The notes beneath the pieces were generated by a model. That model did no database searches and had not been told where the DNA came from. It saw nothing but the letters and a program-made list of their open reading frames with translations. From positions 6,495 through 70,494 of the forward strand of contig JBBKXQ010000049.1 in NCBI GenBank assembly GCA_037969565.1: a stretch of 64,000 bases of DNA, written 5' to 3'. Source of the stretch: Acidimicrobiales bacterium. GTDB lineage: Bacteria > Actinomycetota > Acidimicrobiia > Acidimicrobiales > SZUA-35. Position numbers and translations under genes: made by a program. Below are positions 5,324 to 23,864 of this stretch, piece after piece. How positions within the stretch are numbered: position 1 is the stretch's first letter; every line of letters begins with the position of its first letter.

Positions 5324-6802
5324 TCAGGCCATCGGCCGGTCGGTGGGTCGAACGGGGCTCGGTAGCAGCGTGTGTCCCATCAGGCTCTTGTCGACGGCAG
5401 CGGCGCAGGCCCGACCTTCGGCGATCGCCCAGACGATGAGACTCTGACCACGGCCCATGTCACCGCAGGCGAACACCCCTGATTCCGAGGTGGTCCAGTC
5501 TCGATCTCGAAGCACGTTGCCGCGGCCATCGAGTTCGACGCCGAGTTGGTAGAGGAGGCTTCCCTTTTCCGGTCCGACGAATCCCATCGCCAGGAGAACG
5601 AGGTCGGCGTCGTATTCGAAGTCGGTTCCCTCGATGGGGACGAATCCGGGACGATCGTCGATCATCCCCATCTCGACCTCGGTGCCACGAAGATGTGTGA
5701 TCACACCATCCGATCCGACGAACTCACTCGTGTTCACGGCGTACACCCGGTCGCCACCCTCTTCGTGGGCCGAGGTGACCTTGTACTGAAGGGGAAAGAG
5801 CGGCCATGGCGTGCGCTCGGAACGCTCGTCAGGAGGACGGGGCATGATCTCGAACTGTTTGACGGAGGCCGCTCCCTGTCGATGTGCGGTGCCGAGACAG
5901 TCGGCCCCGGTGTCGCCGCCACCGATGATGATCACGTGCTTGCCCTCGGCTGAGATCGCTGGTCGTTCGTCGTCGCCTTGCTGCACTTTGTTGGCCAGTG
6001 GCAGATATTCCATGGCCTGATGGATGCCATCGAGCTCGCGCCCGGGAATCGGCAGATCGCGTGATTCGGTTGCTCCCCCGGCCAGGACGACCGAGTCGAA
6101 TTCGGCTCGCAGCTCGGCGACGGGAATGGTGTTCGGGTTGTCGGCCGGCCCACCGACGTAGGCGTCGGTGCGAAACTCGGTGCCTTCGGCCGACATCTGA
6201 TCGAGTCGACGGTCGAGAACGGATTTTTCCATCTTGAATTCGGGAATGCCGTAGCGCAGGAGACCACCGATGCGGTCGGCGCGTTCGAACACCACGACGT
6301 TGTGACCGGCGCGAGTGAGTTGTTGGGCGACCGCGAGGCCAGCCGGACCAGAGCCGATGACTGCCACCTTCTTGCCGGTTGGCTTGGAGGCGATGACGGG
6401 CGTGACCCAACCCTCTTCCCAGGCTCGATCGATGATAGCCACCTCGATGTTCTTGATGGTCACCGCTTCGGTGTTGATTCCGGCGACGCATGCCCCCTCG
6501 CACGGGGCCGGGCAGAGCCGACCGGTGAACTCCGGGAAATTGTTGGTGGCGTGGAGGCGTTCGATCGCGTCTCGCCATTGGTCGCGGTAGACGAGATCGT
6601 TCCAGTCGGGAATGAGGTTGCCCAACGGGCATCCCTGATTGCAGAAGGGGATCCCACAGTCCATGCACCGGGATGCCTGATCTTGTAACTCGAACTGGTC
6701 GAAGGGTTCGTAGACCTCTTTCCAGTCGCGGAGCCGTACGGGAACGGGACGCCGGGTGGGAACCTTGCGGTCGTGAATCAAGAACCCGCGAGGATCACCC
6801 AC
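5324..6802 (-). CDS. gltD: Glutamate synthase small subunit
   Basis: [55 protein letters not shown]. Confidence 0.97.
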
Positions 6803-9800
6803 GAGTCACCTCCATGAGGGAACTGGTTGGGTCGGCGCCGTCGAAGGTTGCATGTTCGGCGGCAATGAGTACTCGTTTGTAATCAGATGGCATGACTTTG
6901 ACGAAACGCTCGACCTCGCTGGCCCAGGAGGCGAGCAACCGATCGGCCACTTCGGATCCGGTTTCGGTCTGATGGACTTGGATGAGTGCGAGAAGTTCGG
7001 CCTGGTCTTCCGGGCTCAGCGGGTCGAGTTCGACCATCTCGCGATTGACCCGGGACGGAAACGACCCGTCGACGTCGTAAACGTAGGCGATTCCGCCGGA
7101 CATGCCGGCCCCGAAGTTGCGTCCGGTTCGACCGAGAATGACGGCCCGGCCGCCGGTCATGTATTCACAACCATGGTCGCCGACTCCTTCGACGACGGCC
7201 GTGGCGCCCGAGTTTCGAACGCAGAAGCGCTCCCCCACACGACCCCGGAAGTACGCCTCGCCAGAGGTCGCTCCGTAGAGGAGCACGTTGCCGGCGATGA
7301 CGTTGTCTTCGGCGACGAAGGTGCTGGATTTGTGGGGGAAGAGCACGAGGCGCCCGCCACTCAGGCCCTTGCCCACGTAGTCGTTGGCGTCGCCTTCGAG
7401 GCGCAGCGTGATGCCCTTGGGTACGAACGCCGAGAAGGAGTTCCCGGCCGAACCGGTGAAGTCGAGTTGGATGGTGTCTTGGGGCAAACCGTCGGCCCCA
7501 TGCCGTTTGGTGACCTCGTGGCCGAGCATCGTGCCGACGGTGCGGTTGACGTTGCGAATGGGATAGGCCTGCCGGAACGGAGTTCCCGATTCCAGTGCGT
7601 CGGCGCAATCGACGATCAGCGTTTGGTCGAGGGCCGCCTCGAGTTGGTGGTCCTGCGTGGTGATGCAGCGGCGGGGCGTGCCTGGCTCCATCTGCGGTAC
7701 GTAGAGAATCGGTGAGAGGTCGAGACCTGACGCCTTCCAGTGATGGACGGCATCGCGAGTGTCGAGGCACTCGGCCCGTCCGACGGCCTCTTCGATCGAG
7801 CGGAATCCGAGTTCAGCCAGATACTCACGAACCTCTTCGGCGATGTATTCGAAGAAGGTTTCGACGAACTCGGGCTGCCCCGAGAATCGGGCCCGGAGCT
7901 CGGGATTCTGCGTGGCAACACCGACCGGGCACGTGTCGAGGTGGCACACCCGCATCATCACGCACCCGGAGACGACCAGGGGTGCCGTGGCGAAACCGAA
8001 CTCCTCCCCGCCCAGCAGGGCGGCCACGATCACGTCTCGGCCCGTCTTGATCTGGCCATCGACCTGGACGACGATGCGGTCGCGAAGGTCGTTGAGAAGG
8101 AGCGTCTGTTGGGTTTCGGCGAGGCCGAGTTCCCATGGCCCACCGGCATGTTTCAGCGAAGTGAGCGGCGATGCGCCAGTGCCTCCGTCGTTGCCCGAGA
8201 TGAGCACCACATCGGACTTGGCTTTCGAAACACCCGCGGCAACGGTGCCCACTCCCACCTCGGAGACCAACTTGACGTGGATCCGAGCCGATGGGTTGGC
8301 GTTCTTCAGGTCGTGGATCAGCTGGGCCAGGTCTTCGATCGAATAGATGTCGTGATGGGGAGGAGGCGAGATGAGACCGACGCCCGGGGTCGAGTAGCGC
8401 ACCTCGGCAATCCAAGGCCACACCTTCTTGCCCGGAAGCTGGCCTCCCTCACCGGGCTTCGCCCCCTGCGCCATCTTGATCTGGATGTCGTCGGCGTTGG
8501 TCAGGTAATTCGACGTGACACCGAACCGACCGGAGGCGACCTGTTTGATGGATGATCGCTTGGAATCACCGTTGGCCATGGTGACGAAGCGGGCCGGATC
8601 TTCTCCACCCTCGCCGGTGTTGGACTTGCCGCCGAGCCGGTTCATGGCGATCGCCAGCGTTTCATGGGCCTCGGATGAGATCGACCCGTAGCTCATGGCT
8701 CCGGTGGCAAATCGTTTGACGATCTCGGAGATGGGTTCGACCTCGTCGATCGGAACCGGTTCTCCCATCGGCTTCAGCTTGAAGAGTCCGCGGAGCGTTG
8801 CGAGCTGCTCGGCCTGGTCGTCGACGAGCGTCGTGTACTCCTTGAACACCTTGTACTGCTTCGAGCGTGTTGCGTGCTGCAGCTTGAAAACGGTTTCCGG
8901 ATTGAAGAGGTGGAACTCACCTTCGCGCCGCCACTGGTATTCGCCGCCCAGCTCCAGCTCTCGGTGGGCCAACATCTCGGGACGGTCGGGGAAAGCCCGA
9001 CGATGTTGCTGAGCGATTTCTTCCGCGAGTTCGTCAAGGCCGATTCCGCCCAGCTTCGAGGTGGTTCCGGTGAAATACTCGTCGACGAGTTCGTGACCCA
9101 GACCGAGTGCTTCGAAGATCTGGGCCCCGGCGTAGGAGGCCACGGTGCTGATGCCCATCTTCGACATCACCTTGATGACACCTTTGGAGGCGGCCTTCAC
9201 GTAGTTGTAGCCGGCCAACGATGGGTCGGCGCTGGATTGGTCCCACGCGATCCGATCCTCGATTGCCTCGAACGTGAGGGAGGGACAGATGGCGCCGGCG
9301 CCGTACCCCAGCAGAAGGGCGAAATGATGCACTTCGCGGGCGTCGGCGGAATCGATCACCAGACCGATCTGGGTGCGGGTTTTCTCCCGAACGAGATGAT
9401 GGTGAACGGCGCTGGTGAGCAGGAGCGATGGGATGGGGGCCAGATCAGCCGTGGCATCACGGTTGCTGACGACGATGATCGACGACCCTGCGGCGATGGC
9501 TTCTGATGCCTGCCTGCGAACGTCTTCCAAGGCCAGCCGCAGCCCCTCGCCGCCCTCGGCAACCGGGTAACGCCCACGCACGACGCTGCAACTGAGGCGA
9601 GGGAAGTTGCCTTCGTCGTTCGCGTGGATGATCTGCGTGAGTTCGTCACGGGTGATGACGGGGTGGGGCAGACGAATCTGGCGGGAAGAACGGGGGCCAG
9701 GATCGAGGAGATTGCCTTCGGGTCCGATGGCACTGCCGGCTGCGGTGACCAGTTCTTCGCGGATCGAGTCGAGGGGCGGGTTCGTGACCTGGGCGAACAA

Positions 9801-11315
9801 CTGGGAGAAGTAGTCGAACAACAAACGCGGTTTGCTGGACAACACGGCCAGCGGCGTGTCGGTGCCCATTGATCCGATCGCCTCTTGGCCGCTGCGAACC
9901 ATCGGTTCGACCAGGAGCTCGAGTTCCTCTTGGGTGAAACCGTTGGCGACCAACTGCGGAATGATCAACTCGTGGATGGGGTGTGGGATGTCTCGCTCGG
10001 GCAGGTCTGCCAGATCGATGAAACTCTCGTTCCATTCCGCATAGGGGGCGGCCGCGGCGAGCGTGGCTTTGATCTCGGCGTCATCGATGATTCGGCCATT
10101 GACGGTGTCGACGAGGAACATCTTTCCCGGCTCGAGCCGACCCTTCATCACGATCTTCGACGGGTCGACATCGATGACGCCGACCTCGGAAGCCATCGCA
10201 ACGATTCCGTCGTCGGTGACCCAGTAGCGACTCGGCCGGAGACCGTTGCGGTCGAGCACGGCGCCGACGATTTCGCCGTCGGTGAAGGTGACCGAGGCTG
10301 GTCCGTCCCATGGCTCCATCAGCGCCGAGTGAAAACGATAGAACTCCCGTTTGGCGGGATCCATCGACGGGTTCTTCTCCCAGGCTTCGGGAATCATCAT
10401 CAGAACCGCATGCGGGAGCGAATATCCGCCGAGATGCAGGAGTTCGAGCGCCTCGTCGAAACTGGCCGTGTCGGAGGCGTAGGGGGTGCAGATCGGGAAG
10501 AGTTTCTCGATTCGATCTCCCCAGATCGGCGATGCGAGGAGCGCTTCGCGAGCACGCATCCAGTTGCGGTTGCCCTTGACGGTGTTGATCTCGCCGTTGT
10601 GGGCCACGAATCGGTACGGGTGGGCCAGCGGCCAAGACGGGAACGTGTTGGTGGAGAACCGACTGTGAACCAGCGCCAGAGCGCTCTCGATGAGAGGATC
10701 GACCAGATCAGGAAAGAAGTCGGAGAGTTGGGGTGTGGTGAGCATGCCCTTGTAGACGAGGGTGCGGCTGCTCAGGCTCGAGAAGTAGACGGGGAGTTCG
10801 TGTTCGATCCGCTTCCGAACGACATATGCCTCGCGGTCGAGGTCGATGCCACGCAAGCCGGCGGGTGACGAGATCACGAGTTGTTCGAACGACGGCATCA
10901 CACCGAGGGCTTGGGAGCCGAGCGTGGAGGGGTCGGTGGGCACGGTTCGCCAACCGACGATCGTGAGGCCCTCGTCGGCCACGATCTTCTCGATCGAGTC
11001 CATGACTTCGAGTCGTTCGTCGTTCGACGCAGGCAAGAAGCCGATACCGACGGCGTAGCTTCCGGCCGGGGGAAGGTTGTCGAATGACTTCGAGAGGAGG
11101 CGATGGGGAACTTGGATCAGGATGCCGGCGCCGTCGCCGGTGTTCGGCTCGGCATTGGTGGCGCCTCGGTGCTGCATACACGTCAGGGCGTTCAACGCGA
11201 GCACGACCACGTCGTGGCTCACTCGACCGTTGAGATCGGCAATGAAACTGACGCCGCATGCATCGTGTTCGAATGAAGGGTCATAAAGACCCTGGGTCGG
11301 CGGAAAGTCTTTCAC
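6795..11315 (-). CDS. gltB: Glutamate synthase large subunit
   Basis: EHDACGV N-terminal Cys, [45 protein letters not shown]; likely GTG start 11315 after GGAG (ORF is open from 11435). Confidence 0.97.
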
Positions 11316-11501
11316 CGGCTTCTCCAGGTCAGTAGGGCGGCGGTCGCTTGTCGAGGGACGAAAAGCGGGCGGGGACAGCGTTGGCCCGGCCAAGGAGTTC
11401 GGAGATCCTATCTCCCGATGCAAAGGGTTCGCCAAACTTCATCGCTTGATGAGATGGGTGGCGGGGTTTCCCCATGTTTCCACGATCGGTACGTTCCATG
11501 A

Positions 11502-16032: not shown

Positions 16033-18165
16033 TCACCGACCGGTCAAGATCTCCAGCGCGAGGCGGACAGCCGCAGGGCGGTCGCCGAATCGTTCGGCGT
16101 CGTTCCAGGCGGAAATCTCCAGCTCGGTGGGGAACCGATCCAGGACGGTGTACCCCAGCAGATCGTTGAAGGCGACCTGATCGATCGAGCGGCGATACTC
16201 CACCGATTCGGTGAGCGCCAGAACCAGGTGGCCCCGATCGAGACCGGCCCGTAGCTGCGAGATCCAGAACGATCGTCCATTGGGGTCGGCGTCGCGCCTC
16301 AGCACCTGTGCGTACAGCGCATCGACGAACTCGGCGTCATCGAGCTGACGGCCCTGAGCGAACTCGAGCGAGACGGCAAACGATCGAGCGATGATCGGGT
16401 CCTCGACGCCTCGCTGCGCCTGACTCCGCCAGAAATCGAACCCGCCCTGGTCCGGCTGCCGATGGAGCAGGCCGTGATAGAGGCGCACGATCACTTGCTG
16501 ATGCTGGGCCGGCTCCGACTCGAACAGTTCAGCGAGAACACCAGCGCTCCCGACGATGCGAGCCCGGGCGACAAGGAGGTCGGCGTTGATTCCCGGGGAG
16601 TCGTCGAACACCAACGCTGGTCCGACAATACGTTCAACCACGCTGAGGAATCGCTCGGCGGTTGCAAAGGGCGGCAACGCCAATGGCGTGCCCAGCTCGG
16701 GCGCTTCGACCCAGAGGCCCTCGGTGGCTGCATTCCCGGCCCGTACGCGGACACCGAAGGTCTGCCCGTTGGTCAGCCCCGTGATCTGCGGACGATCAGG
16801 ATCCAGGCGGTGCACGCTGCTCACGCCCGCTGAGGAGCTGAGCTCGACATCGAAATAGGCGGGGGGTGGACCGAGCGACAAATCGCCGACGTCGACCGAG
16901 AGGGTGATGCTGCTGTCACCGGCACTGACCTCGACGGATTGAACGTCGGCCGGCGGGCGACGCAACGGATAGCCCAGACGCTGAAGCACGGCCAGAGCTG
17001 CGTTGTCGATGACTCGTTCAGACTCGCCGAGGCCGAGGAACGGCGTGAGTAGGGGCTGGTTCAGTCCGTAGCGCTCCTCGTCGAGGTGAGCCACCGAACT
17101 CCCTCGATCCCAGAGGGAGGGAGCATACAACTCAACGGCCTCCCGACCCGGTAGATCGAACCAGAGCCGGCCACTCGTGAGGGCTCCGACCTCGCCGACG
17201 GCAACTGGCGACTGCACCGCGCAACCTGATTCAGTTTCCTGCTCACAGAGGAACATCATGCGGTCGTACACGAAGGGCACCTGATCTCCGAGTGGCCACC
17301 GCACCTCGCCGGCGCCCGCAGCGTCGATTCCCAACTCGGCCGAGCTGATGAATCCCCAGCCATGACCGAGCTCGTGGAGAATCACCGACTGGAGGTCGAT
17401 CTGTGTCGGGGACGGGGCACCCTCGCTGATGTTCCAGACCCGACCGTCAACACCGGCGGATTGGTTCAGGAGTACGAGAACGTCGGGATCCCGGGAGAGG
17501 TCGCACGGATCGCGGGGCGAGAAGTCGACACCGAGCAGTTGATTGGCCAAAGCAACCGGATAACGAGACCCGGGGTCGGGCAGTCGTTCGTCTTGAACAA
17601 ACGATCCTGGGCCTGCCGCACCGAGGGATTGGGGTGAACCGAAGTCGAGCCAATACAAATCGATCTCGATCGTGGGTCCCGCCAAACCGAGTTCGGTGGC
17701 CCAGGCCTCGACCGCTGCCTTGGCCAGCACCTGAACCGCTTCAGGGGTCGATGATCCGAAACAAATCCTGACGGCCTGATCGACGCCGGATGGATCAGAA
17801 GCAACGTCGCCTGCGACCCCGACTGGTTCGGCCTCGACCGCTGCTGCGACTGCCTCACCCAGCAACGCGGCTGTCCGTCGCGTCTGCACTGGGTCGGGCG
17901 TGACGCCATCGATGGTGTCGATGACGAGCACACCAGGAGTGATGGACGCTGTGTCGTCGGAAGCTGCTGTGTCGGCGGCGGCTGCTGTGTCGGCGGCGGC
18001 TGCTGTGTTGTCGGCGGCTGCGACGACATCGGGTCGGACCGCGCCGTACGACATCGTTGCGAGAGCAAGGCCGGAAACGATCACGGGCGCGCCGACACGA
18101 ACCAGCCAAGAACTCCGTCGGGTTCGTGTGGCCCTCACCACCCAAGCTCCTCGCATCCGGAACAA
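16033..18165 (-). CDS. Secreted zinc metalloprotease-like protein with FN3 and C-terminal DUF4214 repeats
   Basis: Signal-like N terminus, LHELGHGWGF, SSVAHLDE, GLTNGQTFGVRVRAGN, RLYHGLLHRQPDQGGFDFW, FVDALYAQVLRRDADPNGRSFW; start uncertain. Confidence 0.75.
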   Translation of the reverse strand: MFRMRGAWVVRATRTRRSSWLVRVGAPVIVSGLALATMSYGAVRPDVVAAADNTAAAADTAAAADTAASDDTASITPGVLVIDTIDGVTPDPVQTRRTAALLGEAVAAAVEAEPVGVAGDVASDPSGVDQAVRICFGSSTPEAVQVLAKAAVEAWATELGLAGPTIEIDLYWLDFGSPQSLGAAGPGSFVQDERLPDPGSRYPVALANQLLGVDFSPRDPCDLSRDPDVLVLLNQSAGVDGRVWNISEGAPSPTQIDLQSVILHELGHGWGFISSAELGIDAAGAGEVRWPLGDQVPFVYDRMMFLCEQETESGCAVQSPVAVGEVGALTSGRLWFDLPGREAVELYAPSLWDRGSSVAHLDEERYGLNQPLLTPFLGLGESERVIDNAALAVLQRLGYPLRRPPADVQSVEVSAGDSSITLSVDVGDLSLGPPPAYFDVELSSSAGVSSVHRLDPDRPQITGLTNGQTFGVRVRAGNAATEGLWVEAPELGTPLALPPFATAERFLSVVERIVGPALVFDDSPGINADLLVARARIVGSAGVLAELFESEPAQHQQVIVRLYHGLLHRQPDQGGFDFWRSQAQRGVEDPIIARSFAVSLEFAQGRQLDDAEFVDALYAQVLRRDADPNGRSFWISQLRAGLDRGHLVLALTESVEYRRSIDQVAFNDLLGYTVLDRFPTELEISAWNDAERFGDRPAAVRLALEILTGR

Positions 18166-19245: not shown

Positions 19246-19872
19246 TCAGGGAGATGGGTGCGTCATTCTGACGATTCGGGCCGGGCTGCCGACGGCCACG
19301 CTGTGATCAGGCAAGTCCTTCGTGACCACGCTGCCCGCCCCCACTGCTACCTGACGCCCGATACTCACACCCGGTAACACCACGACGTTCGCTCCGAGCC
19401 ACGAGCCAGAGCCGATTCGGACCGGTTTCTCGGCCGCCATTTGACGCCCGATCGGCGTGTACGGATCTTCCACACCGTGATTCTGATCGGTGACATACAC
19501 GTTCGGACCGAAGAACACGTCGTCCTCGATGACGATCTCGAAATGGCCGACGATGCTGCTGCTCCGCCCGATCACACAACGATCCCCGACTTGCACGATT
19601 CGGTCGCTGATGAGTTCCTGGCCCGGGACCATCCCGGCGCTCAACGAGCAATACGGACCGAACAGCGTGTCTTCACCGATCCTGATGGCGTGCTCGCCGA
19701 ACAACGCGGCGGGCGGAAAGCAGATGATGGATCCCGATCCATACGCCGCGAATCGGTTGGCTCGGCGCGACGTCGGCATGATCGCGGCCCGACGGGTGAC
19801 CCATTCGTGGGCGGCCAGCAGCGCATCGGCGCGCCACAACCTCGGGTTACCGATGTTCCGCTGCTCGGCCAT
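19246..19872 (-). CDS. Hexapeptide-repeat acyltransferase
   Basis: [50 protein letters not shown]. Confidence 0.9.
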
Positions 19873-20757
19873 TCATCGGGCCTGGGCTGATCCGGTGGAG
19901 GCGGCAAGAGCAACCGCGATCAGGCCAGCGATTCGGGCGTTGTTCTCGGCCAGGGCGAGGTTGGTCGGAATGCTGTCTCCGTCGGTGGCCTCGGCGAGCG
20001 CTCCCAGAATCACCGGGGTGACCGCCGAACCCGACACGCCGGCCTCGGCTGCTTTCGCCAGCGCTTGGTCAACAGCGATCGCCAGTCGTTCGAAATCCAT
20101 TGCCGACTCTTCGGGCACAGGCGCCGCAACCAGCAGTCCCCCGCCACCGAGATTCCAATGGGCTCGAGCAATCCGGGCCACTTCGTCGGCCGAGTCGACC
20201 CGATGGGGCACCGGTAAGTTGCTGGAACGAGCGTGGAAGGCAGGAAAGTCGTCGGTCTGCCACCCGAGAACCACGACACTGTCGGTTTCCATTCGCTCGA
20301 CCGTGGCTGCGAGGTCGAGAAAGACCTTGGCCCCCGCACTCACGGTGACGACCTGATGTTTGGCCAACGCTCCGAGGTCGGCGCTGATGTCGGAGGTGTC
20401 GGCCCAACCCCGATGCACACCACCGATGCCACCCGTGGCGAACACCTCGATACCGGCGTCGGCTGCCAACACAAGAGAGGCCGAAACCGTTGTGGCGCCA
20501 TAGTCCCAACCCTGGCCGATGGCCACGCCGAGATCTCGGGCTGCGACTTTGCGTGTGGGCCCACAGATCCTCTGATGCTCGGCCGCGTCGACCCCCACGC
20601 GAGCCACCCCGTCGAGGACTGCGGTGATCAGCGGATCTGCCCCGGAGGCGCGGACGGCCGCGAGGCAACGGTCCAGCGCCTCGAGATTGTGCGGCGAAGG
20701 AAGACCGAGGTGAGAGAAGATCGTGGATTCGAGGGCTACTCGGGCCCGGTCGCTCAT
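19873..20757 (-). CDS. psuG: Pseudouridine-5'-phosphate glycosidase
   Basis: VALESTIFSHLGLP, GATTVSAS, FATGGIGGVHRG, DISADL, SAGAK, VTP, N..L..NNA; ATGA overlap with upstream gene. Confidence 0.9.
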   Translation of the reverse strand: MSDRARVALESTIFSHLGLPSPHNLEALDRCLAAVRASGADPLITAVLDGVARVGVDAAEHQRICGPTRKVAARDLGVAIGQGWDYGATTVSASLVLAADAGIEVFATGGIGGVHRGWADTSDISADLGALAKHQVVTVSAGAKVFLDLAATVERMETDSVVVLGWQTDDFPAFHARSSNLPVPHRVDSADEVARIARAHWNLGGGGLLVAAPVPEESAMDFERLAIAVDQALAKAAEAGVSGSAVTPVILGALAEATDGDSIPTNLALAENNARIAGLIAVALAASTGSAQAR

Positions 20758-22064
20758 CGCTGCCATGCTTCTCCCAGTTCCCATTCGACACCTTCTGGTG
20801 TGTCACGAACTTCGATGTCGGCCCCGGCCATCTCGTCACGGATGAGATCGGACAGGTGGTATTGCTTCTCGTCCCGAACGACGCGGCGCAACTCGAGCAC
20901 GGCCCCCACAACGGGACCGACGACGTCGCGAGGATCACGAACTCCTCCGGTGGCCGCCTGCCCGAGTCGGACGATCATCGACCGACGGGCAGCGCGAGCC
21001 TGGTCGTTGTGGTCGCTCTGCGTGGTGTCGGTCGACCAGCGGTCGATCGCCACGTCGAGAGCCAAGATCGCGGCGACCGCACCATCGGCGTTGCGTTCCG
21101 CCAGCGCTTCGTCGAACTGCTTCTCGATCGACCGCACGTCGTCGAGCAAGGTGGCTCCGGCGAGCTCTGCTGGTGCTGAGGGTGATCGTGTGGGCGTTGG
21201 CTCAGCTGTCGTTGGCGTCGTGCTGGTCGGCGGGGCCACGCGGATGCCTCCAACACCGCCCTCACGAAGCACATCGATCGGCACGGTGACGCCGGCCGGG
21301 ATCGTGATCGACTCACCTCTGGTTCGCAGCGTGAGCACGCCCTTGCCGAAGATCTCTGCGGTGTCGGCGTCGAGATCGAGGGTGACGCCGGTGTGCTCGT
21401 CGATCCCGAGGATGAAACTGTCGGCGGGTAGGTCGCCCTCGATCATCTGTAGCCGTGACTCGCCGAGGTAGCACATCCTCGTGTCGTGATTTCCGCCCTC
21501 GTTGTTGTCGTAATGAGGGATCACGGTGACCGGTAGTCCGAAGGTGCTGAGAAGGTCGAGGCCGTCGTGCCAGAACGGATCGGCGCCGACCTTGTAGATC
21601 TCGTAGACAGGGACGGTCCGAACGCCGATCGTGAGCGCCGCCGCACTGCTGAAGACGACGGCGCCTCCGGTCTGGAGTTTCTCGGCGAGAGCTCCGGCCA
21701 CGGGAGTGCCGGCCCATTGGCGAAGGGTGAAGGTGGGACTCCCAGGGCCGGCGAAGAGCCAGTCGGCCGTGCGAATGCGGCTGAGGGCACGCTCGATGGC
21801 GACCGTGTCGCCGGTGTCTGTGCGTCGCAGCCCGGCGACCTCGACGATCTGCCCGACGCTGACGGCGAAGTATTCCAGGCTCTTCTCGACGAGCGAATCA
21901 GCGTTCTCCTGGAATCCGAAGGGTGTGTCGAGCATCACGGCGTCGAGATCTCGCCCGCCCTTGGCCTGTCGAAGCCGTTCGAACACGGCTCGATGGGGTT
22001 TGGTCATGGTCGGCGCAGTTTCGCCCGATCCCATGAGAACCAATAAGCGAGGCAGGTCTGTCAC
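20754..22064 (-). CDS. Peptidase S51/cyanophycinase-like (GATase-fold) hydrolase fused to a CysRS-type C-terminal anticodon-binding domain
   Basis: LMGSGET, DTPFGFQEN, FAGPGSP, FSSAAAL, IPHYDN, GIDEHT; C-term LRRVVRDEKQYHLSDLIRDEMAGADIEVRDTPEGVEW; TAGCCT 7 nt before GTG 22064. Confidence 0.8.
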   Translation of the reverse strand: MTDLPRLLVLMGSGETAPTMTKPHRAVFERLRQAKGGRDLDAVMLDTPFGFQENADSLVEKSLEYFAVSVGQIVEVAGLRRTDTGDTVAIERALSRIRTADWLFAGPGSPTFTLRQWAGTPVAGALAEKLQTGGAVVFSSAAALTIGVRTVPVYEIYKVGADPFWHDGLDLLSTFGLPVTVIPHYDNNEGGNHDTRMCYLGESRLQMIEGDLPADSFILGIDEHTGVTLDLDADTAEIFGKGVLTLRTRGESITIPAGVTVPIDVLREGGVGGIRVAPPTSTTPTTAEPTPTRSPSAPAELAGATLLDDVRSIEKQFDEALAERNADGAVAAILALDVAIDRWSTDTTQSDHNDQARAARRSMIVRLGQAATGGVRDPRDVVGPVVGAVLELRRVVRDEKQYHLSDLIRDEMAGADIEVRDTPEGVEWELGEAWQR

Positions 22065-22071
22065 TCGCCCG

Positions 22072-22081
22072 AGGCTAGCGT
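22072..22081. promoter_or_regulatory. Overlapping divergent -10 elements (bidirectional leaderless promoter)
   Basis: AGGCTAGCGT reads TAGCCT on - and TAGCGT on +, each 7 nt from a start codon (22064, 22089). Confidence 0.6.
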
Positions 22082-22088
22082 TTGGCCG

Positions 22089-23864
22089 ATGCGGCCCTCG
22101 ACGTCCCGACGCTCCCATCGATTTCTCACGCTCCTCGTGGCGCTCGCCGTCCTTGCGTCGGCGTGCACCAGTGGAGAAGACGATTCCTCCTCCGACACCG
22201 TCCAACCGATTGATTCGACCGAGACCGTCGACGGCTCCGACACGACGGAGTCAACCGAGGAGACGGCGCCCCAACCCTCGGTCGAACCGCTCGAGTGGTC
22301 GGCCTGTGAGCCGTTGGAGTGCACCACCATCATGGTTCCCCGTGATTACTCCGAGCCCGACGGGCCGATGCTCGAGATCGCTGTTGCCCGGCAGCCCGCC
22401 ACCGACCAGGCCAATCGCATCGGTTCGCTGGTGCTCAATCCCGGAGGGCCGGGTGGATCGGGAATCGACTATCTCCGATCAGCCGTATTCACCATCCCGC
22501 AGGAAGTGCAGGCTCGGTTCGACCTCGTCAGTTTCGACCCTCGGGGTGTGGGAGCGAGTTCCGCTGTCGATTGCGACATCAACTACGACGATCTCGCCGG
22601 GCTCGTCCCCGAAGGAGACGATGCGGCCTGGGCCATGATCGTCGAAGAAGATCAAGCGTTGATTGCTTCGTGCCCCGGGAGTGCGCTCGAACTCGCGCCT
22701 TACGTCGGCACCAACAATGCGGCCCGAGATCTCGATCAGCTCCGGGCCGCGGTTGGTGACGAGAAACTCACCTATCTCGGGTACAGCTACGGAACCAGGC
22801 TGGGTGCCACCTATGCCGAACTGTTCCCCGACAACGTCCGTGCCCTGGTGCTCGACGGCGGTGTGCTGCCAACCGATGACCTCACTGCGATCGATCTCGA
22901 ACAGGCGAAGGGCTTCGATCTGGCGTTCGAGAACTTTGCGGCGCAGTGCGACGCCGACGCCGATTGCTTGTTGCAGGAGATCGGACCCACCATCGAGGTG
23001 TTCAGAACGATCGAAGCCGAGATTCGCGACGTCGGGAGTTTCCAAACCGACGACCCCGAGCGAGTTCTCACCCCGGCCGAGTTCTACATCGGGGTCATCG
23101 CCGCGCTGTACAGCGTCAGCGCCTGGCCGTTCCTCGCTCAGGCGCTGTACACCGCCGAAACCGGCGCCGACGGCACGCTGCTCCAGGTCCTTGGCGACAA
23201 TCTGGTCGGTCGGAAGGTCGATGGTTCCTACGACAACAGCAATGAGGCCAACGGATTCATCAACTGCGCCGACGATCCGAGACGCCCGGACGTCGCGGAA
23301 ACCCGGGCCGACGTTTACGAGTCGGCGGCCCAAACCGTCTACTTCGGCGACGCGTTCCGAGCTTCCACCGGTTGCCTCACGGCCCCTCCCGCAATCGACT
23401 CGCTCACCCTCGGTCCGGCCACCGGCTCGCAGCCCATCCTCGTCATCGGCAACACCGGAGACCCTGCAACCCCCTACGAGTGGAGCGCCGCATTGGCCGA
23501 TTCACTCGAGAGCGGCGTGCTCTACTCAGTGGAGGCCGAAGGCCACACCGCCTACGGATCCTTCGAGTGTGTCGCTCCCGTGGTCAACGCCTATCTCATC
23601 GACCTCGAGGTGCCGGCCGAGGGCGGATCGTGTTCGGCGAACGCCGATGCCGACTTCTTTCCCCCGGCCGGTGAGAGCGATTTCGACTTGGTGATCTCGT
23701 TCATCGATTGCATCAGGGACGAAGGAATCGACGTCGCTCCGGTCGGAACCGCCGACCTCCTGGCCGACCCCACGCTCGAGAAACTGCTGGAGGACATCGA
23801 CATCGAGAATCCCGACACGATCGCCGCCGTCCTCGCTTGTCAGAGCCTGCTTCCCACCCCGTAA
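22089..23864 (+). CDS. Alpha/beta hydrolase lipoprotein (tripeptidyl aminopeptidase-like)
   Basis: Lipobox LASAC, NPGGPGGSG, FDPRGVG, GYSYGT, GDPATPY, EGHTAY. Confidence 0.9.
   Translation: MRPSTSRRSHRFLTLLVALAVLASACTSGEDDSSSDTVQPIDSTETVDGSDTTESTEETAPQPSVEPLEWSACEPLECTTIMVPRDYSEPDGPMLEIAVARQPATDQANRIGSLVLNPGGPGGSGIDYLRSAVFTIPQEVQARFDLVSFDPRGVGASSAVDCDINYDDLAGLVPEGDDAAWAMIVEEDQALIASCPGSALELAPYVGTNNAARDLDQLRAAVGDEKLTYLGYSYGTRLGATYAELFPDNVRALVLDGGVLPTDDLTAIDLEQAKGFDLAFENFAAQCDADADCLLQEIGPTIEVFRTIEAEIRDVGSFQTDDPERVLTPAEFYIGVIAALYSVSAWPFLAQALYTAETGADGTLLQVLGDNLVGRKVDGSYDNSNEANGFINCADDPRRPDVAETRADVYESAAQTVYFGDAFRASTGCLTAPPAIDSLTLGPATGSQPILVIGNTGDPATPYEWSAALADSLESGVLYSVEAEGHTAYGSFECVAPVVNAYLIDLEVPAEGGSCSANADADFFPPAGESDFDLVISFIDCIRDEGIDVAPVGTADLLADPTLEKLLEDIDIENPDTIAAVLACQSLLPTP

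Follow-up and report, generated by a model that had tools for sequence, protein, structure and literature searches.

Which substrate would a peptidase-type hydrolase act on if it carried the tRNA-reading end of an aminoacyl-tRNA synthetase? This question is raised by a gene on the minus strand of a 64,000-nucleotide stretch of DNA from an Acidimicrobiales bacterium (GenBank assembly GCA_037969565.1, contig JBBKXQ010000049.1, positions 6,495 to 70,494), hereafter called the window. The 436-aa product joins an N-terminal hydrolase domain related to peptidase family S51 to a C-terminal module homologous to the end of cysteinyl-tRNA synthetase (CysRS). This two-part architecture, proposed in an earlier sequence-only reading of the window, was confirmed at the family level by comparisons of sequence profiles.

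The sequence-only reading had suggested an amide or ester hydrolase steered to a tRNA, and such steering is still our leading inference. The protein is possibly a tRNA-Cys-directed serine hydrolase, that is, an enzyme that would act in trans to deacylate tRNA-Cys carrying a wrong or harmful load, although we hold this proposal tentatively. Held just as cautiously is the wider proposition that the family may represent a new class of tRNA-acting enzyme, in which an S51 hydrolase guided by an anticodon reader would remove or transfer the acyl group of tRNA-Cys.

The two domains and their conserved residues

The reading frame (Table 1) can be extended to position 22205 by using a TTG start. In an alignment of 28 homologues, the N-termini lie just ahead of the conserved motif PRxLxIMGSGE, and because the homologues begin a few residues before it, the GTG start was favoured over TTG. 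The motifs pointed out in the sequence-only reading were all located in the translated protein: FSSAAA at residues 138-143, IPHYDN at 182-187, GIDEHT at 220-225 and the CysRS-like string at 392-428. Its statement that a synthetase core is absent was likewise borne out, as none of the patterns HIGH, H.GH, KMSKS or KMS has a match in the 436-aa protein. A class I Rossmann core with HIGH/KMSKS was not found, and all alignments to CysRS were limited to CysRS residues ∼332-486. The protein is not a CysRS, since it has no catalytic core.

Judged by its predicted fold and its triad, the N-terminal domain belongs to the S51 superfamily as a divergent member. On its own, the window protein matches the Pfam model Peptidase_S51 (PF03575) at E 0.036 (14.2 bits), under the gathering score of 23.9 bits. 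Two relatives pass this score (P0261, 25.4 bits; L114, 25.2 bits), while most of the scanned members are below it. The family profile built from 28 sequences matches the S51-like structure 6nqc at E 1.2e-5. The alpha/beta fold of PepE and cyanophycinase is present in this domain, and the Pfam, NCBIfam and fold searches returned S51 only; none of the known editing folds (INS/YbaK, AlaX, DTD, ThrRS N2) was found in them. In addition, the family has invariant motifs of its own, namely MGSGE, TPFGFQEN, GPGSP, PVYEIYK and HYDNxEGGxHDT.

Conservation was assessed in a set of 94 sequences, comprising the query and 93 of 150 listed representatives of 50%-identity clusters; the other 57 representatives, falling outside 395-480 aa, were left out of the alignment as fragments or longer forms. 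The assignment to S51 and the positions of the putative Ser-His-Glu triad, both anticipated in the sequence-only reading, agree with this alignment, in which Ser140, His184 and Glu223 are kept in 94, 94 and 91 of the 94 sequences, respectively. The hhalign comparison with PepE places Ser120 of that enzyme on S139, one residue before Ser140. Since S139 is replaced by Ala in 58 of the 94 sequences and Ser140 is invariant, the latter is the likely nucleophile.

The origin of the C-terminal part was determined from sequence profiles. The window protein alone matches the Pfam model CysS_C at E 0.0086 (16.6 bits, under the 23-bit gathering score), and it also aligns with the final hundred positions of the NCBIfam model cysS (E 0.0038). 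Much stronger matches were obtained with profiles: positions 305-423 of the 28-sequence profile match residues 362-485 of the CysRS structure 8qhp at E 4e-6. A profile limited to the C-terminal part (the last 136-141 residues from 30 genomes), compared with the sequences of the Protein Data Bank (PDB), returned five CysRS at E 4.6e-11, 1.7e-10, 1.3e-9, 2.5e-8 (E. coli) and 4.4e-5, with the first match to another protein at E 0.26. CysS_C was matched at E ≤ 0.01 by 29 of the 30 C-terminal segments, so that the tail was found to match CysRS anticodon-binding profiles by both routes. Five of 12 scanned members exceed the CysS_C gathering score, and one of the same 12 exceeds that of S51. The homology noted in the sequence-only reading therefore stands, whereas its extent does not: instead of the last ∼45 aa, it covers ∼125 aa, which take in both the helical bundle and the anticodon-binding domain and correspond roughly to residues 332-461 of E. 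coli CysRS.

Within the tail, hhalign places window residues 386-429 on residues 416-459 of E. coli CysRS (E 4.8e-5). R427, W432, D436 and R439 of the E. coli enzyme are the anticodon contacts randomised in the experiments described in the relevant part of PMC13449415, and they pair with R397, Y402, D406 and R409 of the window protein. Arg397 is present in 90 of the 94 sequences, an aromatic residue (Trp, Phe or Tyr) at 402 in 88, Asp406 in 90 and Arg409 in 91. As judged from this alignment, the residues with which CysRS contacts the GCA anticodon are conserved across the family.

In the AlphaFold2 model of the full-length protein (mean pLDDT 84.7, pTM 0.62), residues 1-267 form an alpha/beta domain and 277-299 are disordered; four helices span 306-398, and residues 402-430 make up a helix and a beta-hairpin. 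The linker between the two parts is of low complexity throughout the family and its length varies from 9 to 71 aa (median 30). In the VIA structure search, residues 307-431 of the model were aligned to residues 332-461 of CysRS 1u0b_B. The module was identified by sequence profiles, and its predicted fold alone would be insufficient to identify it.

Distribution and genomic context

At least 8000 proteins match the family under E 0.001 in a word-indexed search, and an exhaustive search at E ≤ 1e-3 found 1556 cluster representatives, of which 499 match at ≤ 1e-30. Among contigs representing one genome per species, at least 599 species genomes carry the gene (599 of 600 pattern matches were confirmed). 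The family is found mainly in Acidimicrobiia; the best 80 of these at least 599 loci are nearly all from metagenome genomes with Acidimicrobiia-type labels, and they include one from a cultured carrier, Salinilacustrithrix flava (locus L057). Members are named "hypothetical protein", "cyanophycinase-like exopeptidase" or "peptidase E" in their source databases, while the ESM-Atlas clusters, some of them dominated by Chloroflexota, are labelled "hypothetical protein" or "cysteinyl-tRNA synthetase-like". The sequence-only reading knew of no characterised protein of this architecture, and full-text literature searches found no paper describing an S51 domain with a CysRS tail.

Of 401 genomes sampled evenly across the phylum, 42 have a match at E ≤ 1e-10, and ∼31 of them were taken as carriers. 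The remaining 11 were set aside, as their sole match (E ∼1e-11) falls in the C-terminal positions of the profile and lies in frames of 460-560 aa taken to be the CysRS of the genome itself. The gene was present in 41 of 121 genomes sampled from the class, in 7 of 12 from the taxonomic family and in 5 of 6 other genomes of the genus. In one genus with genomes of 0.9-1.1 Mb it was found in all 12 sampled, which argues for a core cellular role. The loci from five of these small genomes have 30-33% G+C and encode proteins of 357-369 aa; in these homologues the helical region is shortened, with the motif of the anticodon domain and its contact residues intact.

The surroundings of the gene were compared between related loci. 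Upstream of it and on the same strand, an alpha/beta hydrolase gene (Abhydrolase_1/6, with no NCBIfam equivalog) is immediately adjacent in 70 of the 73 loci with enough upstream sequence, as counted by tblastn, and it is often preceded by two Gfo/Idh/MocA dehydrogenase genes. In the genome studied here, the orthologue of this hydrolase (52% identity) is found outside the window, at a distance of ∼72 kb on the same contig, at C49:99869-100624 (locus L096) and on the strand opposite to the studied gene. The split of the pair is consistent with a rearrangement. A prediction of the complex between the protein and the upstream hydrolase (the L012 pair) gave a score of 0.00 against a mark of 0.32 and weighs neither way. 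The survey of distant loci elsewhere in the phylum covered 11 of 14 (L089-L091 were not recovered by the open reading frame filter and were left out); the neighbours are varied and follow no theme, with the hydrolase in one locus. The ∼1-Mb genomes have a different alpha/beta hydrolase gene (Abhydrolase_3) in divergent orientation upstream, and shikimate-pathway genes convergent downstream. In one distant carrier genome, a gene for a release-factor-like protein (baeRF family 10, E 7.7e-22) was observed ∼1 kb from the homologue and on the opposite strand (L084:5974-7170, plus strand); this is a single case.

The immediate neighbours in the window are different. The stop codon of the studied gene overlaps the in-frame ATG at 20757 of a pseudouridine-5'-phosphate glycosidase gene (psuG) in the sequence ATGA, and the string of studied gene, psuG and acetyltransferase gene is confined to the window's own taxonomic family. 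On the other side, 24 bp (22065..22088) separate the GTG from the ATG of a divergent gene for a TAP-like alpha/beta hydrolase, in which a lipoprotein-like N-terminus was recognised by eye; one or both of the divergent mRNAs may be leaderless. The products of psuG, the hexapeptide acetyltransferase gene and the TAP-like hydrolase gene were considered as functional partners and rejected, as these genes adjoin the studied gene in 0 of 80 related loci and do so solely in members of the window's own taxonomic family. Two further open reading frames of the window, both on the minus strand, were recorded: one of 1546 aa (6795..11435) and one encoding a 710-aa protein (16033..18165) with an N-terminal Ala/Asp/Thr repeat, a DUF4214 domain (E 1.5e-21) and, as read by eye, a motif HELGH resembling that of zinc proteases.

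No tRNA genes were found within the window. The genome encodes one tRNA-Cys(GCA), a separate complete CysRS and an MshC-like CysRS paralogue; because a complete CysRS is present elsewhere, the tail does not represent a piece of the housekeeping CysRS gene. ARAGORN called 50 tRNAs in the whole genome, including the single tRNA-Cys(GCA) and two putative tRNA-SeC(TCA). The paralogue, which is without the anticodon-binding domain (C172:41088-42176), scores 427 bits on the MshC model, against a cut-off of 485. As this cut-off is passed in 0 of the 121 genomes of the class sample, the MshC-like proteins of Acidimicrobiia look like a divergent group. The paralogue was also considered as a partner of the studied protein, or as the part that it replaced, and was rejected, since all 12 of the small genomes carry the gene with a single CysRS-family match. 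Many genomes with the MshC-like paralogue lack the studied gene.

Table 1. Positions of the studied gene, its domains and predicted catalytic codons, and the genes that follow it, in window coordinates
Feature	Position	Strand	Remarks
Whole coding sequence	20754..22064	−	436 aa + stop; GTG start at 22064
N-terminal peptidase-S51-like hydrolase domain, aa 1-267	21264..22064	−	
Ser140 codon, predicted nucleophile in FSSAAA	21645..21647	−	Ser in 94/94; aligns with the SAGA serine of 6nqc
His184 codon in IPHYDN	21513..21515	−	Aligns with PepE His157; His in 94/94
Glu223 codon in GIDEHT	21396..21398	−	Aligns with PepE Glu192; Glu in 91/94
Disordered Ala/Gly/Pro/Ser/Thr-rich linker, aa 268-305	21150..21263	−	pLDDT <50 at 277-299
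Helical region, aa 306-385, homologous to the CysRS helical-bundle domain	20910..21149	−	Profile alignment to 8qhp 363-486
CysRS-type anticodon-binding domain, aa 386-436	20757..20909	−	hhalign E 4.8e-5; Pfam CysS_C
Pseudouridine-5'-phosphate glycosidase (psuG)	19873..20784	−	Pfam Indigoidine_A, E 6.9e-93
Hexapeptide acetyltransferase	19246..19872	−	Directly after psuG, no gap

A proposed tRNA-Cys-directed hydrolase and its alternatives

The mechanism that we propose would work as follows. The C-terminal module, derived from the helical-bundle and anticodon-binding domains of CysRS, would bind tRNA by docking on the anticodon arm of tRNA-Cys (anticodon GCA), as in CysRS, and the flexible linker would allow the S51 domain to extend to the acceptor end, where the ester joining an amino acid or acyl-amino acid to A76 would be attacked by the Ser140-His184-Glu223 triad and hydrolysed via an acyl-enzyme intermediate. 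S51 enzymes cut the bond at the alpha-carboxyl of the N-terminal residue and a preference for Asp is typical of them; for this reason an Asp-like acyl group, oxidised cysteine for example, is put forward as one speculative candidate. In the relevant part of PMC9239234, MccG is an S51 enzyme whose substrates are aspartamide-adenylate and -cytidylate, in which it hydrolyses the carboxamide bond. A nucleotide can therefore serve as the leaving group, which makes an aminoacyl ester to A76 a reasonable substrate. The combination of domains also has a counterpart in ThrRS-ed, which edits as a free-standing protein and carries an anticodon-binding domain of its own, as outlined in the corresponding part of PMC11295145.

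Several observations weigh against this proposal. CysRS is highly accurate, and no wrongly acylated tRNA-Cys is known to us whose removal would be required. When superposed on CysRS, the predicted C-terminal fold fits poorly (rmsd 15-16 Å); a Foldseek search with the C-terminal model alone placed CysRS 1u0b at the top, yet at an E of only 1.9e-3, and a wide VIA search with the same model gave generic helical bundles. The window protein is acidic throughout, with net charges of −12, −6 and −4 in the N-terminal domain, the anticodon domain and the helical region, respectively (family medians −7, −2 and −4). Reach to the acceptor end is not assured either, because linkers can be only 9 aa long. 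The distribution is patchy, and wider occurrence would be expected of a general fidelity factor. Finally, no translation or tRNA gene recurs among the neighbours of the surveyed loci; the sole conserved neighbour, a generic alpha/beta hydrolase, points more to small-molecule metabolism.

Some of these points can be read in favour of an ordinary S51 exopeptidase, an Asp-X dipeptidase or cyanophycinase-like enzyme, whose tail has lost tRNA binding and been repurposed for oligomerisation, localisation or contact with a protein partner. The acidic protein, the weak match of the C-terminal fold to CysRS and the generic hydrolase next to the gene fit such an enzyme, as do the database names "cyanophycinase-like exopeptidase" and "peptidase E" and the fact that the nearest structural match, 6nqc, comes from a freshwater actinobacterium and is a peptidase with no tail. 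A repurposed tail, however, would not be expected to keep the exact anticodon-contact residues in ∼90 of 94 diverse members. Moreover, the window protein scores 12.3 bits on the NCBIfam cyanophycinase model TIGR02069, far from its cut-off of 126.6, and cyanophycin synthetase exceeds its cut-off in 0 of 5 carrier genomes (best 106 against 850 bits), a count to be read beside 0 of 14 in the controls and no positive control. We regard a plain peptidase as unlikely, though it deserves serious attention. The small aminoacyl-nucleotides that MccG handles suggest a different substrate, for example a natural cysteinyl- or aspartyl-adenylate mimic poisoning a synthetase, which the protein would detoxify; in the part of PMC9239234 concerned with this activity, protection against processed microcin C is conferred by MccG and by several stand-alone homologues of family S51. 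This is the least probable of the explanations weighed here and we give it very little credence, since a small-molecule substrate gives no reason for an anticodon-binding module, the acid of the triad is Glu in 91 of 94 members instead of the Asp of the MccG clade (clade V), and no mcc-type genes turned up among the scanned neighbours.

The evidence from architecture and conserved residues applies equally to a Cys-tRNA-Cys-dependent aminoacyl transferase, in which the serine would take up the cysteinyl group of tRNA-Cys as an acyl-enzyme, pass it to an amine or hydroxyl acceptor in place of water and so build a cysteine-containing small molecule. Acyl transfer is within the reach of Ser/Cys-His-acid enzymes with related folds, and the co-directional alpha/beta hydrolase with the two sugar- or inositol-type Gfo/Idh/MocA dehydrogenases could be a small biosynthetic unit. 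We nevertheless consider a transferase clearly improbable: enzymes that would form an acceptor (aminotransferases, ligases) do not recur among the surveyed neighbours, beyond the class the gene occurs singly and in differing surroundings, the ∼1-Mb genomes keep it without the hydrolase/dehydrogenase cluster, and there is no dependence on the MshC-like paralogue, as seen in the same 12 small genomes. The conserved anticodon-binding residues would also suit a peptidase gated by tRNA, whose tail would respond to the amount or charging state of tRNA-Cys and thereby turn the activity on or off; GCN2-type kinases, which carry a HisRS-like tRNA sensor, follow a similar logic. For a regulatory role, a linker that is flexible and in some members short is a better fit than for spanning the long distance to the acceptor end. 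The full-length model, with its pTM of 0.62 and disordered linker, gives no sign of contact between the domains, though, nor is any peptide substrate indicated, and we know of no bacterial precedent; such a gated enzyme appears a little less probable still than the transferase.

If the tail indeed binds tRNA-Cys, this would be the first enzyme of the S51 fold acting on tRNA, and it would reveal a new route to tRNA-specific hydrolysis, with a peptidase catalytic domain aimed by a recycled anticodon reader. The wider proposition would also imply a new quality-control or tRNA-dependent step in the handling of cysteine, of sufficient importance to be retained by free-living bacteria with ∼1-Mb genomes. 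As CysRS has, to our knowledge, no editing domain, the existence of a dedicated hydrolase for tRNA-Cys would prompt one to ask which errors arise on this tRNA. The family is abundant in environmental Actinomycetota and is unnamed in databases, and with at least one carrier in culture, the idea can be put to a direct test by standard tRNA biochemistry.

Comparison with known systems

The characterised S51 enzymes are without the linker and CysRS-type tail (170 aa together) of the studied family, and the sequence similarity of the family to PepE (an Asp-X dipeptidase) and to the cyanophycinases CphB/CphE is marginal. Structure 6nqc, described as a "peptidase from an acI-B1 Actinobacterium", has 244-259 aa and is tail-less; our literature searches found no paper on it. 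MccG resembles the studied protein in being an S51 serine hydrolase, and the part of the MccG literature used here describes its substrate as a mimic of an aminoacyl-adenylate with a nucleotide leaving group. It differs in being a single-domain enzyme with a small-molecule substrate and Asp as the acid of the triad, whereas the studied family has Glu and an anticodon-binding module.

Among proteins acting on charged tRNA, one analogue in design is ThrRS-ed of Crenarchaeota, which, as presented in the corresponding part of its literature, combines a hydrolytic domain with the anticodon-binding domain of the cognate synthetase and acts in trans. Its hydrolytic fold is unrelated and the synthetase is another one; editing has been demonstrated for ThrRS-ed, and is a proposed role for the studied family. 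YbaK, a Cys-tRNA-Pro deacylase, is a hydrolase that removes cysteine from tRNA and, in the accounts drawn on here, deacylates Cys-tRNA-Cys in vitro. It is unrelated to the studied protein in sequence and fold, and is described there as a single INS-fold domain with no tRNA-specific recognition. The free-standing editing factors treated in the relevant part of a 2024 review (PMC11295145) have other folds, most of them are without an anticodon-binding domain, and no S51-type factor is among them.

With CysRS itself (E. coli 1li5/1u0b; 8qhp), the studied protein shares the homology of its last ∼125 aa and the contact residues kept there, whereas the Rossmann core with HIGH/KMSKS is absent from it. 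MshC, a CysRS paralogue without the anticodon-binding domain, is a second instance of a dismantled CysRS gene: it keeps the catalytic half of the synthetase, and the studied family keeps the tRNA-binding half. Neither depends on the other, as the ∼1-Mb genomes have the studied gene without an MshC-like paralogue.

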